Shown: positions 5,523-42,305 of the stretch, in pieces
Layout of the letters: every line of letters starts with the position of its first letter
Position numbering within the stretch: position 1 is the first letter of the stretch
NCBI GenBank assembly: GCA_052168195.1
Contig: JBQLZI010000001.1
Location: forward strand, 1-46,708
Source of the DNA: Phycisphaerales bacterium
GTDB taxonomy: Bacteria > Planctomycetota > Phycisphaerae > Phycisphaerales > UBA1924
Direction: 5' to 3'
DNA length: 46,708 nucleotides
Position numbers and translations under genes: made by a program
Notes under the pieces: generated by a model
Databases searched by the model: none
Told to the model about the DNA's origin: nothing
Seen by the model: the letters and a program-made list of their open reading frames with translations, nothing else

Positions 5523-5596
5523 GGGGCGGTAGCTCAATTGGTTAGAGTACCGGACTGTCGATCCGGTGGTTGCGGGTTCGAGTCCCGTCCGCCTCG
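5523..5596 (+). tRNA. tRNA-Asp (anticodon GTC), intact, no encoded CCA
   Basis: Hand-folded cloverleaf. Acceptor GGGGCGG/CCGCCTC. Anticodon arm CCGGA-CTGTCGA-TCCGG, giving GTC. T arm GCGGG-TTCGAGT-CCCGT. Discriminator G. Confidence 0.9.
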
Positions 5597-6921
5597 CTTC
5601 TCAACCCCCGCTCCGGCGGGGGTTTGTCATTTTCGGCTTCCGGCGCAGACTCCCGAAAATCCGCCGTTGCGTCCTCATTGCGTCCTCCCGGCGCGTCGGC
5701 GTCATCGCCGAGGAAGCCGTCCAGCGCCTTCCGCGCCCGCGTTGCGTCCTCGCTCTCGGCGGCCAGGTAGAACGCCTGCGTCGTCTTGATGTCCGCGTGC
5801 CCCATGTACTCCTTGAGCACATGCATCGGCACCGCTCGGGCCATCTGCGTGCCGTAGGTCCGGCGCAGGTCGTGGAGCGAGCCCATCGTCCACGCCACCT
5901 GATCGACCTCAACGCCGCGGCGCTTCGCGACCAGCCGCCGCGCCTTCCGTTGGATTGTCTGGAAGCGGACAGCAAGGTTGTTGAGCGGTTCGTAGTTAGC
6001 CCCCAGCGGCCCGGCCTTCATCTCCGCGTCGATGGTCGCGAGCCGCTCAAGCGTCAGGAACACATAGGCCGAGCCGTCGCTCTCGGTCTGGAGCCGCGCG
6101 AGCAGCGCCAGCGTCCGCGCGGGCAGGGGCACGACGCGCTCCTCGCTCGACTTGGCGGACCATTCGAGGATCGGGAACGCTCCGCTCCCCCGGACGCGGA
6201 ACTCGCCCCTGCGCTTCGCGGCGACGCGGACAGTCCCTTCGTCGAAGTCGATGTCGCCCCAGAGCAGGTTCGAGAGCTCGCCCTTGCGCAGGCCGCTCGT
6301 CACGGCGAGCGCGACGAACGCGCGCCACCAAGTGTTGGAGCAGACCTCCAGCATCGCCGCGATCCCCTCGGCGGTGAAGATGCGCTTGGGGCGCGACTGG
6401 GTCTTGGGCATGCGCACGCGCGAGAAGGGGTTCTCGCGCAGGAAGCCGTAGTCGATCGCCCGGTTGAACATCGCCTTGAGCGTGCGCAGCGTCTTGGCGA
6501 GCGTCGCCGGGGCGTTCTTCCGCTCCTCGATGACGTAGGTTTTGATGCGCCCGATGTCGGCCTTGGTGATGCTCGCGATCTTCCGCTGGCCGCCGAGCGC
6601 CCCCACCGCGTGCGACCCCGCGTGCCGGATGCCTTCGAGGCTGTTGCGCTTGAGGTCGATCGCGCACGCCTCCAAGTCGTGCTCGACGAACGCCGCCAGG
6701 GTGATGTCCTTCGGCCGGTCGCGCCCGATCTGCCCGGAGTTGATCTGCGTCTCCTTCTCGCGCCGCTTCGTCTCGGCGGCGCTCTTGGTCACGGTCCCGA
6801 CCCGTCCGATCGACTCCGAGTAGCGCTTGCCGTCGACGCCGTACCAGCGCAGCGTCCAGTACTGGGCCTTCTGCCCCGTGCCGATCGTCACGCTGCGCTT
6901 GTGCAGTTGGACGGTGATCAT
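5542..6921 (-). CDS. int: Tyrosine recombinase / integrase 1; the ORF runs through the att core into the tRNA
   Basis: 459-aa ORF. It has the Arg box (SGLRKGEL), HxxR (LHDLRRTYG) and a catalytic Tyr region (TTQAFYL). The stop lies inside tRNA-Asp. Confidence 0.9.
   Translation of the reverse strand: MITVQLHKRSVTIGTGQKAQYWTLRWYGVDGKRYSESIGRVGTVTKSAAETKRREKETQINSGQIGRDRPKDITLAAFVEHDLEACAIDLKRNSLEGIRHAGSHAVGALGGQRKIASITKADIGRIKTYVIEERKNAPATLAKTLRTLKAMFNRAIDYGFLRENPFSRVRMPKTQSRPKRIFTAEGIAAMLEVCSNTWWRAFVALAVTSGLRKGELSNLLWGDIDFDEGTVRVAAKRRGEFRVRGSGAFPILEWSAKSSEERVVPLPARTLALLARLQTESDGSAYVFLTLERLATIDAEMKAGPLGANYEPLNNLAVRFQTIQRKARRLVAKRRGVEVDQVAWTMGSLHDLRRTYGTQMARAVPMHVLKEYMGHADIKTTQAFYLAAESEDATRARKALDGFLGDDADAPGGRNEDATADFRESAPEAENDKPPPERGLRSEADGTRTRNHRIDSPVL
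5553..5599. repeat. attL: 47-bp direct repeat covering the tRNA-Asp anticodon stem through the 3' end plus 3 nt
   Basis: gactgtcgatccggtggttgcgggttcgagtcccgtccgcctcgctt is identical base-for-base to 42259..42305. Confidence 0.88.
5605..5633 (+). terminator. Hairpin plus T-tract just after tRNA-Asp (element-supplied terminator candidate)
   Basis: CCCCCGC-tccg-GCGGGGG followed by TTTGTCATTTT. It lies inside the tail of the integrase ORF on the opposite strand. Confidence 0.45.
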
Positions 6922-6968
6922 CGCTCGGCTCCAGCATAAGGCGCGGCCGCGAGGCCGCTAGACCTTCC

Positions 6969-7244
6969 TCATGAATCCTGCGTCCCGTACCGCTCCGTCT
7001 GCTCGCGCACGAAGCGGCACAACTCCTCGCGCGAAAAGCGGTTGTGCTTGCCGACGCGGCACGGGCGGATGCGTCCCGTCAGCACGAGGTATTCGAGCGA
7101 CTTCACCGCGTCGGCGATGTCCCGCCCGCCCTCGGTGAGCCGGAGGAACACCGCGGCCTCGGCGGCGGTCATGACCGCGGGCGCGATCGTCGGCGGGTCT
7201 GTCGGGAGCCACTCGGGGGCGGGCCCGGGGATGTGGGTGATCAT
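6969..7244 (-). CDS. Excisionase-family / MerR-type HTH DNA-binding protein
   Basis: 91 aa. AAEAAVFLRL...RPCRVGKHNRFSREEL is typical of Xis/AlpA-like HTH proteins. It lies directly upstream of int on the same strand. Confidence 0.65.
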   Translation of the reverse strand: MITHIPGPAPEWLPTDPPTIAPAVMTAAEAAVFLRLTEGGRDIADAVKSLEYLVLTGRIRPCRVGKHNRFSREELCRFVREQTERYGTQDS

Positions 7245-7325
7245 CGGCTACCCCGATCGTCACTTTGTACGCTTACACGCTAACGGCGATCGCGCGCAGA
7301 CGCGGTCGCGTCCGAGCGCGCCGGT

Positions 7326-7736
7326 TCACCGGGGCTTCTTGGTTCTGGTTGGTTTGCGGGTCTTCTTCGCGGCCATGGTCCGCGCCTGCGCGATGAGCGC
7401 GTCCCACTGGTCGGCGTCGAGACCCTTGGCGGCGCGGAGGAGGTCGGGCGCCTTGGCAGCGGCGGTCGGGCTGCTGGACGCGATCTCCCCCACCACTGTC
7501 TCGGCCTTGCCCCACCCGGCGCGGAGCGTGGCCTCGTCAACGCCGTAGACCTTGGCAATGCGGAGGAGGAGCTCCTCGGAGGGCGAGCGCCGCCCCTTCT
7601 CGATGTCCGTGAGGTGCGCCGGGGCGATTTCGAGCGTGCTCGCCGTCTCGCGCAGGCCCTTGCCCATCACCTCGACGCGACGGGCGCGAAGGACCTCGCC
7701 GATGGGGGCTGCGGGCTGTTTCGGGGACGGGGTCAT
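7326..7736 (-). CDS. XRE-family HTH transcriptional regulator
   Basis: LRETASTLEIAPAHLTDIEKGRRSPSEELLLRIAKVYG is an HTH_3-type motif. The ATG at 7736 is preceded by GGAG; the track's upstream start is a TTG. Confidence 0.8.
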   Translation of the reverse strand: MTPSPKQPAAPIGEVLRARRVEVMGKGLRETASTLEIAPAHLTDIEKGRRSPSEELLLRIAKVYGVDEATLRAGWGKAETVVGEIASSSPTAAAKAPDLLRAAKGLDADQWDALIAQARTMAAKKTRKPTRTKKPR

Positions 7737-40818: not shown

Positions 40819-40873
40819 GGCCTTCTCCTTGCTGTTGAATCTCAACTCAACGGTGGGGGTAAAAAAAACAGGT

Positions 40874-41590
40874 TCAGAACAGGCGCGCTTGGCCTGTGGC
40901 GTAGTCACGGTGCTCGAAGAGCTGCTTGCCCTTCACGTACAGCAGGTCGAGTTGTTGGAGACGCACGACCATCGCCGAGATGGTCACGCCGAACTTGTCC
41001 TTGAGGTCGTAGAGCGCTGGCCAACTGGTGCGGTCGATCTTCTTGACCTCCTCAAGCACTAGGTTCTTGGGCATCGAGATCGCGGCGGCGTAGCGATTGA
41101 CGACGCGGGCTTCGTCCGGCTCATCCGCGCGCTGATCGATCTCCTTCAGCAGCGCCCGCCCTTCGGCGGACTCCTCCAGCTTCTTAATGACGGCAACGTC
41201 GCCGACACCCGAACTCCGGAACGCGAACGGCCCGTCGCCGTTCTCGTCAAAAAGCGCGGGGTGGCCGAATGTCGCCTTGTCTACGTACAGGTCCCAGTGG
41301 CCCATCTCGTGGCCCTTGGTCGAACGCTCAAGCCCGGGATGCTTGTCCATGTACTCGCGGCGGGCTTCGTTCAGGATGATGAGCTTCTTCTGCGGCATGA
41401 TGGCGCCGAGGATCAGTTCGCCGGGGAGTTCCTGCACCGTGTCCCAGAGGAAGTCGAGCCCGAGCACGACCTCGCCGAGGTAGTCGATCTGGATCGGAAG
41501 GGTAAGCGGCTTGCCCATCGCACGCTCCATCTCCAGCAGCCGGGTTTCGGCCAGTACCTCTATGTCTGCGTTGCGATAGAACCGTTTCAT
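40874..41590 (-). CDS. ImmA/IrrE-family zinc metallopeptidase
   Basis: HEMGHWDLY is an HEXXH motif. The ATG at 41590 overlaps the XRE stop (ATGA). NRYAAAISMP is a downstream family motif. Confidence 0.85.
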   Translation of the reverse strand: MKRFYRNADIEVLAETRLLEMERAMGKPLTLPIQIDYLGEVVLGLDFLWDTVQELPGELILGAIMPQKKLIILNEARREYMDKHPGLERSTKGHEMGHWDLYVDKATFGHPALFDENGDGPFAFRSSGVGDVAVIKKLEESAEGRALLKEIDQRADEPDEARVVNRYAAAISMPKNLVLEEVKKIDRTSWPALYDLKDKFGVTISAMVVRLQQLDLLYVKGKQLFEHRDYATGQARLF

Positions 41591-41967
41591 TCGTCGGTGA
41601 TCCTTCTCAGTTTGTCGATGAGCTTGTCCCACTGCTCGGGCGTGAGGTTGCGGTCGACCGCCGACCGGTAGAAGACGCGGGCCTTCTCATTCTGGAGTTG
41701 CTCGCTGACATCGGACGGCGCTTTGCCAGCGAGGGCGAGGAGCTCGTCGCTGTCCGCATCGAGCACCAGTGCAAGAACGAGAATGGCCTGCTGAGATGGC
41801 GGCGGCATCCTCTCGTTCTCGATCTTACTGAGATAGGTGAAGTCGAACCCACGACCGTCCTGCTCCTTCAACTTCGCCGCGACCTTGTCGGCGAGCTCTC
41901 GCTGGGACAGGTGCTTGCCGAGCCTGAGCTCCTTCAGCCGCGTCCCGAATGTCTTTTCCCGTGGCAT
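41587..41967 (-). CDS. XRE-family HTH transcriptional regulator
   Basis: FGTRLKELRLGKHLSQRELADKV...YLSKIENERMPP is a classic HTH_3 motif. Confidence 0.85.
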   Translation of the reverse strand: MPREKTFGTRLKELRLGKHLSQRELADKVAAKLKEQDGRGFDFTYLSKIENERMPPPSQQAILVLALVLDADSDELLALAGKAPSDVSEQLQNEKARVFYRSAVDRNLTPEQWDKLIDKLRRITDE

Positions 41968-42258
41968 TCGCTCCTACTGTACCGCCGTTGAGTTGAGAGT
42001 CAACGCTATGAAGTCAAGAACTTTCCCCCCTCTGCGAGTGCGGACACGGCGCGGGGCCTGGCGGACAGCAAGTGAAACATTCACCACCGGATTCTGCGAC
42101 CCCGAATCCGGTGCTCGCTCATTGCGTCCTCCGTTGCGTCCTGACCAGGGCCCAAGACGCAATGGGCTGGCCCCCCACTCACCCGGGCGATCCGTCTTCT
42201 TGACCCTCTGAAGGCGGTTTCTGAGTGTCTGAGGGCCGGTTTTGTTCGGTATCTTTTC

Positions 42259-42305
42259 GACTGTCGATCCGGTGGTTGCGGGTTCGAGTCCCGTCCGCCT
42301 CGCTT
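42259..42305. repeat. attR: second copy of the 47-bp tRNA-Asp 3'-half repeat
   Basis: Identical to 5553-5599. There is no tRNA 5' half upstream of it. Confidence 0.88.

Follow-up and report, generated by a model that had tools for sequence, protein, structure and literature searches.

A probable integrative mobilizable element at the head of a putative tandem array in the tRNA-Asp gene of a Phycisphaerales bacterium

We describe here a 46,708-nucleotide (nt) stretch of DNA, 'the window', from a metagenome-assembled genome (MAG) of a Phycisphaerales bacterium (Planctomycetota; assembly GCA_052168195.1, contig JBQLZI010000001.1, hereafter C1), and the 36,659-bp interval within it, 'E1', that lies between two copies of a perfect direct repeat. 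We read E1, with a probability of about 0.8, as an integrative mobilizable element (IME) that is integrated in a gene for tRNA-Asp, is mosaic in composition and forms the first unit of an array of three elements. It is a real element of an ordinary, already known kind. To our knowledge, the mobile elements of Planctomycetota have barely been described.

The integration site, its att cores and its integrase

The ends of E1 are marked by the 47-mer GACTGTCGATCCGGTGGTTGCGGGTTCGAGTCCCGTCCGCCTCGCTT, which occurs twice in the window, on the plus strand, at 5553-5599 and 42259-42305, without a mismatch between the copies; in dinucleotide-preserving shuffles a match to the 47-nt repeat was found 0 times out of 100. 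The first copy, the attL core, falls in the one intact tRNA-Asp, with anticodon GTC (5523-5597, plus strand; ARAGORN, and the Rfam tRNA model at 70.4 bits). It spans the gene from tRNA position 31, where the anticodon stem has its final base pair, to 2 nt beyond the 3' end. The second copy, which serves both as attR of E1 and as the left attachment (att) site of the next element, follows unrelated sequence and lacks the tRNA 5' half. Each copy has a hairpin and T-run terminator of its own after it, read directly in the sequence. An earlier note, made from the sequence alone, had reported both the repeats and their placement in and away from the tRNA, and both reports hold. Contig C4 of the same assembly carries one more perfect 47-nt copy, the third, together with one of 45 nt. 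In other genomes, too, the core is 45 nt long, beginning with CTGTCGA in the anticodon loop; in the window this family-wide block of identity begins at 5555, and the two additional matching bases of the 47-nt core are probably incidental. Anticodon-centred att sites are a common class among those in tRNA genes (PMC4383910).

The integrase, Int1, is a tyrosine recombinase of 459 amino acids (aa) encoded at 5542-6921 on the minus strand (Pfam Phage_integrase, E = 5.6e-20, plus a SAM-like domain). Aligned to XerA (4a8e), it keeps the full catalytic set of R, K, HxxR, H and Y. The note's statement that an integrase abuts the tRNA copy is correct: the Int1 open reading frame (ORF) adjoins and overlaps tRNA-Asp, running through the terminator and the att core to a stop codon at 5542-5544 in the tRNA 5' half. 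Beside it, at 6969-7244 on the minus strand, is 'Xis1', an excisionase-like HTH_17 protein (26.4 bits, slightly under the Pfam cut-off of 27), homologues of which, 68-72% identical, lie next to Int1 in the islands of three relatives (G326, G327 and G329). Int1 occurs in a single copy in this assembly. Its homologues, at 52-60% identity, are found in other Phycisphaerales and in one Pirellulales MAG, and in 9 of 12 related loci a tRNA-Asp is convergent with, and overlaps, the 3' end of the integrase gene. A second copy of the core could be found in the same three genomes, bounding islands of 35-43 kb: it lies 43.3 kb away in G326 (the isolate ac7, CP159477) and 41.8 kb away in one MAG, and G327 has two further copies, at 35.3 and 13.6 kb, which is to say a tandem. 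A much smaller arrangement was seen in G009, of the same family (its contig C1, 2512082-2514501; L039): a tRNA-Asp and a partial 3' copy 2.3 kb away enclose a distant Int1-like integrase (27%), a minimal island at the same site.

The path of the Int1 frame through its own att core has a consequence for the protein. The integrated form is 459 aa long and the excised form is predicted to be 482 aa; only the tail beyond the catalytic tyrosine, which is of low complexity, is altered by the integration state. The frame crosses the core in all nine related loci (L040-L049) as well, in two different frames. This geometry recalls the Mx8 and SSV integrases (PMC6070905, PMC4383910). A regulatory role for the tail, of the Mx8 sort, is nevertheless doubtful, because the relatives cross the tRNA in two frames and because the tail is of low complexity.

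Flanking the cores are arms that carry a 9-mer, TTGCGTCCT, of which the window holds six matches against 0.52 expected, all on the plus strand and all at element ends. Three (5667, 5678 and 5742) are in the left, or P', arm (5600-5750, plus strand), which also contains the element-borne tRNA terminator hairpin (5600-5633). Two more (42122 and 42134) are in the right, or P, arm of E1 (42083-42258, plus strand), and the last (38127) is in an internal vestige described below. The left motifs stand at about +115 to +150 from the core, as they do in the Int1 islands of G326, G327 and G329 and in E3, an element on C4; the right motifs stand at -137 and -125, with the same spacing in E3, G327 and G329. 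The spacing of the arm motifs is thus kept across five islands. The right arm of E1 is, besides, 82% identical to the right end of an island in G002, a congener.

Related genomes also supply the site without its island, as the earlier note had proposed should be looked for. In G003, of the same genus, window segments 1-1116 (88.7% identity), 5408-5600 and 42259-42339 are contiguous, so that polA, tRNA-Asp and terminator follow one another, with no second core copy and no Int1. In G002 (on its own contig C1) a MacB-type ATP-binding cassette (ABC) transporter operon lies 4.2 kb after tRNA-Asp; the same operon, in the same order and at 60-80% aa identity, follows the last att on C4 of the present assembly, and both flanks in G002 are therefore syntenic with at most 4.2 kb between them. 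The locus answers in other respects to the description of islands by Islander. The intact tRNA-Asp (5523-5597) is paired with a displaced same-strand 3' fragment 36.7 kb away, in a permitted range of 2-200 kb; integrases lie inside the interval (Int1, and a second, Int2, at 11754-12932); and the same locus lacks the island in G003 and G002.

The proposal of site-specific integration into the 3' part of tRNA-Asp stands well, then, on an intact Int1, a Xis-like gene, arm sites at both ends, the lack of the island in G003 and G002 and Int1 islands at tRNA-Asp elsewhere. From this anatomy, and from the comparisons, we picture the entry of E1 as a tyrosine-integrase recombination between the attP of a circular form and the tRNA gene, in which the strands would cross over within the anticodon loop. 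Since E1 comes with a tRNA 3' part and a terminator of its own, the gene at attL is still whole; the present 3' part of the gene is island-supplied, and the displaced original would be the one that remains at the far end of E1.

To the left of the tRNA is chromosome. The 3' part of polA, for DNA polymerase I, occupies 2-1120 (plus strand, frame +2; Klenow and Bst Pol I structures, E = 2e-90) and is 88.7% identical in nucleotide sequence to that of G003, where tRNA-Asp comes directly after it. The earlier note had placed housekeeping-type genes on both sides of the island, polA on the left and copA on the right; the left-hand half of that statement is sound, with the qualification that 4.3 kb of variable genes separate polA from the tRNA. 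These are two paralogous ORFs of 722 and 639 aa (1216-5415, plus strand), outside the island, for which no Pfam, NCBIfam or PDB match was found. The 4.3-kb segment between polA and tRNA-Asp (1117-5407) is absent from G003, and G002 has several paralogues, about 30% identical, in the corresponding position. Upstream of the hotspot there seems to be a gene family that is evolving rapidly.

Gene content and class of E1

The class of E1 is read from its gene content. The mobilization module (26467-33066, mixed strands) opens with a DUF2958 protein and two small ORFs (26467-27628, minus strand). A TrwC (MOBF) relaxase-helicase follows at 27829-30885 on the plus strand (Pfam TrwC, 1e-68; AAA_30, 4e-39), and then a type IV coupling protein (T4CP) at 31555-33066, also on the plus strand (TrwB_AAD_bind, 3e-8; T4CP domains above the Pfam cut-offs). 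The relaxase is 87%, and the coupling protein 64%, identical in aa sequence to the counterparts in the G002 island. No VirB4, VirB6 or other mating-pore domain was found by Pfam among the approximately 45 ORFs scanned, in which every ORF of at least 500 aa is accounted for. For VirB4 the assembly was searched in full with PF03135 (not with PF11130 or PF01935), and the family has no member in it. Nor did Pfam, the one collection used for this purpose (PHROGs was not searched), find capsid, terminase, portal or tail domains in any ORF.

IMEs, and the related concepts of the cis-mobilizable element (CIME) and of accretion, are defined in PMC5704250. E1 has a relaxase and a coupling protein of its own and, in the ORFs scanned with Pfam, no mating-pore module of the type IV secretion system (T4SS) kind; a complete T4SS with a VirB4-type ATPase, the mark of an integrative and conjugative element (ICE), is lacking, and so, by Pfam, are the virion and packaging genes of a prophage. 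We class E1 as an IME rather than an ICE or a prophage because it combines the TrwC relaxase and the coupling protein with an absence of mating-pore genes. The idea that E1 might be a self-transmissible ICE or a prophage draws on its size of 36.7 kb, its integrase and excisionase, and an ImmA/ImmR-like pair of the sort that ICEs and prophages share. Set against the missing mating-pore and virion domains, and the genome-wide absence of PF03135, that idea is very improbable.

The remaining genes are regulators, recombinases and cargo. The Int2/TrwC backbone begins at 7326 and runs, in its first part, to 13935 (Pfam). It comprises an HTH_31 regulator (7326-7748), four ORFs low in guanine plus cytosine (GC) content (7827-10115), an ImmA-like M78 peptidase (10065-10814), an HTH_3 protein (10904-11431), a Xis2-like ORF (about 11494-11757), Int2 (11754-12932) and ArdC (12940-13935). 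Beside ArdC and Int2, at 14091-14135 on the minus strand, is a tRNA-like 3' fragment, resembling a T-arm and acceptor and ending in ACCA. We considered it as a candidate attP for Int2 and rejected it, as it has no Rfam match and no second copy in the assembly. No match at three or fewer mismatches was found in 300 Planctomycetota genomes, only 23 nt of it are conserved in the G002 island, and it is not the 3' end of a transfer-messenger RNA (tmRNA). It is probably a chance resemblance.

A defence cluster follows at 14239-24584 on the minus strand (PADLOC, Pfam), made up of an SNF2 helicase, a DUF1156 adenine methylase, a short PglZ-like protein and a 912-aa ATPase. PADLOC matches it to BrxHI/II (1e-99), HmaA (5e-97) and HmaB (8e-37). 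The ATPase is Hma-like or BREX-3-like, and the PglZ-like protein gives a weak match to BREX-3 PglZ (E = 8e-4). The GC content of the cluster is 0.59 against 0.69 for the backbone. Next to it is a Fic/DOC protein with a DUF4172 domain (24759-25958, minus strand; Pfam). Beyond the mobilization module comes a three-gene cargo of low GC content (0.52) at 35092-37995 on the minus strand, consisting of a channel-like membrane protein and two proteins without an assigned function (Ion_trans_2; weak Capsule_synth). An uninterrupted (GA)25 tract (34921-34970) sits at the border between the GC-rich backbone and this module. The last genes of E1 form a ubiquitin-like conjugation operon (38327-41967, minus strand; Pfam): DUF6527, a JAB-E1 (ThiF) protein, an E2 of family E and a multi-ubiquitin protein, accompanied by regulators, a CapP-like peptidase and a CapH-like helix-turn-helix protein (PADLOC capP, 1e-9; E1-E2, 3e-15). 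In related islands no counterpart of this operon was found.

Mosaic structure and the tandem array

That E1 is composite emerges most clearly from the congener G002. Window positions 7323-32995 are 80-90% identical in nucleotide sequence to an island on contig C2 of G002 (437001-515000; L038, L080, L081, L093), the Int2 proteins being 91-93% and the TrwC proteins 87% identical. Int1 and Xis1 are missing from the G002 island, which is bordered on the left by ssrA, the tmRNA gene. It ends in a right arm and core of the tRNA-Asp type, and the intact tRNA-Asp of G002 is on another contig; about 14 kb are inserted between its Int2 and ArdC genes. This layout suggests rearrangement through the att site. 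We looked at tmRNA as the target of Int2 and discarded it, as there is no tmRNA repeat within 78 kb of the G002 island. G215, G182 and G416 have the same set of HTH_3, Xis2, Int2, TrwC, ArdC and a 175-aa ORF, at 40-55% aa identity, and no tRNA or tmRNA was found within 40-50 kb of the Int2 homologues in those three genomes. Since Int2 recurs with TrwC away from tRNA genes, it belongs to the relaxase backbone, and Int1 and Xis1 constitute the tRNA-Asp module.

Base composition divides E1 further. The cargo blocks have GC contents of 0.55, 0.59 and 0.52, against 0.67-0.69 for the backbone, and these lower-GC blocks mark cargo insertions. Between the last of them and the ubiquitin-like operon is the internal vestige mentioned above, a copy of the right (P) arm at 38111-38258 (plus strand) that contains one TTGCGTCCT and is identical to 42117-42264 at 110 of 151 positions (73%). 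The match breaks off precisely at CGACTGT, which lies inside the anticodon, the expected place of strand exchange. A plausible, though unproven, history is that E1 once had a further neighbour in tandem, which recombination at a middle att cut back, leaving the vestigial arm behind. E1 as a whole can be resolved into an Int1-Xis1 module, a backbone of Xis2/Int2, ArdC, relaxase and coupling protein, three lower-GC blocks and, after the dead right arm, the terminal ubiquitin-like operon.

Beyond the second core the window does not return to the chromosome. What follows, at 42306-46708, is the left part of another element, the copper-resistance element 'E2': a terminator, GTGCGTC arm motifs, a PepSY gene (42510-43256), a CopA-type P-ATPase gene (43264-45633) and a permease gene cut by the end of the contig (Pfam). 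The permease, for amino acids, is truncated by the end of C1, and C4 ends in its 5' part; when set against the uninterrupted homologues in G009 and G003, these pieces lie next to each other, with about 12 nt missing between the contigs. In G327 the middle element (13.6 kb, between two att copies) is collinear in its left part with the right end of C1 and in its remainder with the start of C4, minus strand. On C4, E2 goes on with a YHS/TRASH protein, CusA and CusB, and ends in three GTGCGTCT motifs and the 45-nt core (C4 19716-19672). The terminator and GTGCGTC motifs, the collinearity with G327, the split permease and the continuation on C4 to a core lead us to take the right flank of E1 as E2 rather than chromosome. 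The copA gene, which had passed for an ordinary housekeeping flank, thus lies within an att-bounded element, and the true chromosome begins two elements further on. The permease and its YHS/TRASH neighbour were also seen 0.2-1 Mb from tRNA-Asp in G009 and G003 (L083, L084), so the copper-resistance module sits at different genomic places in the family.

A third element, E3, of 7.9 kb, follows on C4. It has TTGCGTCCT arms at both ends and finishes at the perfect 47-nt core (C4 11764-11718), and it encodes two ABC permeases, a binding protein, a flavin adenine dinucleotide (FAD) oxidoreductase, a cysteine-dioxygenase-like protein and a sigma-54 activator. No integrase was found by Pfam in E2 or E3; by the same measure their genes are for metal efflux, transport and regulation only, apart from a few small ORFs without annotation. 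Each has cores and arm motifs at both ends and no integrase or transfer genes, as expected of CIMEs, and they look like elements that only Int1 could move; Int1 would act on all four att copies. Laid end to end, the predicted array would read: tRNA-Asp, E1 (36.7 kb), att, E2 (about 13.8 kb), att, E3 (7.9 kb), att, chromosome, or some 58 kb in all. Such a locus is a tandem accretion, of an integrase-bearing element and CIMEs, in the sense of PMC5704250.

Mobility, significance and known parallels

If E1 still moves, Int1 and the Xis-like protein, acting at the TTGCGTCCT arm sites, would reverse the integration and excise it, and the TrwC relaxase and coupling protein would pass a nicked strand to a mating pore that E1 itself does not encode. 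We regard continued excisability as plausible, judging from the state of the recombination genes and sites.

Several observations weigh against our reading of E1 as an IME at the head of an array. An exact search of public metagenome contigs for the attP junction and for the E1-less junction gave no matches. The genome is a fragmented MAG (470 contigs, 2.7 Mb), of which the window is one entire contig, and the join between C1 and C4 rests on homology to relatives, not on reads. In G003 the DNA downstream of the tRNA has no match to E2 or to the chromosomal flank on C4, which makes G003 a one-sided comparator. No helper mating-pore system could be detected in this genome, and the order has almost none; the transfer of E1 is therefore entirely a prediction. 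Finally, two short contigs, C434 (1-54) and C455 (363-416), end 54 nt into an identical tRNA-Asp, from which it follows that the sample holds further contexts for this gene. Their upstream sequences differ from that of C1 and are homologous to each other, and each encodes a small membrane protein. They probably represent other Phycisphaerales populations in the sample, or contigs that were mis-binned.

Fragmentation of this kind raises the question of whether E1 is a chimera assembled through the repeated tRNA-Asp core in a mixed population. The bin does have at least four core copies in its 470 contigs, and the ends of C434 and C455, each after 54 nt of the same tRNA, are typical of a branch in an assembly graph with k = 55, the value that they suggest for this assembly. 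With an apparent k of 55 and a core of 47 nt, however, every junction yields k-mers that are unique to it. The two ends of E1 share an arm motif in the same orientation. Int1 and Xis1 are joined to TrwC, T4CP and Fic again in G329; the right arm and core are followed by copA again in G002, and an Int1 island, core and copA occur together again in G327. An independent Logan assembly of run SRR33532330 gives both ends at 100% identity up to the core, at which both of the recovered contigs stop. An artefact of assembly therefore seems to us scarcely credible.

More serious, though still unlikely in our estimation, is the alternative that the island arrived by site-specific integration and has since become a fixed, domesticated remnant, incapable of excision or transfer, the repeats being identical because the insertion is recent or because selection acts on the tRNA copy only. 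It would account for the lack of a detectable helper T4SS ATPase in the genome and in 120 of 121 genomes of the order, for the one internal att that has already decayed, for the two neighbouring elements that have lost their integrases, and for the failure to find the circular junction. It fits poorly with an Int1 ORF that is intact in all of its catalytic residues and accompanied by Xis1, with motif arrays at conserved spacing in both arms, and with an attR copy which, though under no such selection, is still identical at 47 of 47 positions. A near-identical backbone in another chromosomal context in the congener, furthermore, points to recent movement.

A helper for E1 is hard to find in the order. 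A TrwC relaxase occurs in 15 of 121 Phycisphaerales genomes (about 12%); VirB4 (PF03135) occurs in one of the 121, and that genome has no TrwC. AAA_10 (PF12846), with PF03135 one of the two main VirB4 families, was found in none of the 121, with Bacillus subtilis detected as a control and other VirB4-like families not searched. Elements with a relaxase and coupling protein being common, and VirB4 being nearly absent, planctomycete elements could conceivably leave the cell by an unrecognized mating apparatus or another route of DNA export, rather than by classical piracy of a T4SS; we consider this speculative and rather improbable. The mismatch between common relaxases and rare VirB4 is at any rate a small, testable question.

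The locus is of use in other ways. Int1, Xis1, the 45-nt tRNA-Asp core and the TGCGTC arm sites are a defined system common to Phycisphaerales, and one carrier, ac7 (CP159477), is a cultured isolate in which both reactions, excision and integration, are open to test and might eventually serve as a genetic tool. The array offers a worked example of growth at a single tRNA gene, to an apparent 58 kb or so, by the stacking of one integrase-bearing and two integrase-less elements. And E1 is a vehicle for two uncommon defence systems, the helicase-methylase-ATPase cluster and the multi-ubiquitin/E1/E2 operon.

Among known systems, the myxophage Mx8 integrates into tRNA-Asp and so shares the target of Int1. 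The resemblance extends to the arrangement of the gene: in Mx8 (intP/intX) attP lies inside int, and the Int1 ORF likewise crosses the att core, with a change at the C-terminus (PMC6070905). It does not extend to the proteins, for no sequence similarity of Int1 to Mx8 Int was detectable (BLASTP, E = 2.5), so that homology was rejected, and the best matches to Int1 among phage integrases are at most 27% identical.

In its general plan E1 is like the IMEs reviewed in PMC5704250, with a module of site-specific tyrosine integrase and excisionase at the 3' end of a tRNA gene, a relaxase and a VirD4-type coupling protein, no mating pore, and adaptive and defence cargo. It differs from them in its host, a member of the Planctomycetota (Phycisphaerales); in its MOBF/TrwC relaxase; in the second Xis/Int pair within; and in having no detectable helper candidate in the host or the order. 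Like the islands found by Islander (PMC4383910), it presents an intact tRNA gene with an integrase beside it, a displaced 3' fragment that keeps the orientation of the gene, and a block of identity from the anticodon loop to the tRNA 3' end. Islander counts tandems only if every unit has an integrase, and the present array would be scored as a single island.

The closest parallel to the array as a whole is the accretion of CIMEs with ICEs or IMEs, as represented by ICESt1/ICESt3 and CIMEs of Streptococcus thermophilus (Pavlovic 2004, Bellanger 2011, in the summary given in PMC5704250). Measured against that summary, the present array would comprise three units, with a fourth of which E1 keeps just the dead arm, and E2 has arm motifs of a variant sequence, GTGCGTCT. 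In the Streptococcus case as summarized there, and apparently here, several elements share one att site, a single unit bears the integrase, and the others keep att sites and arms by which they could be moved in cis.

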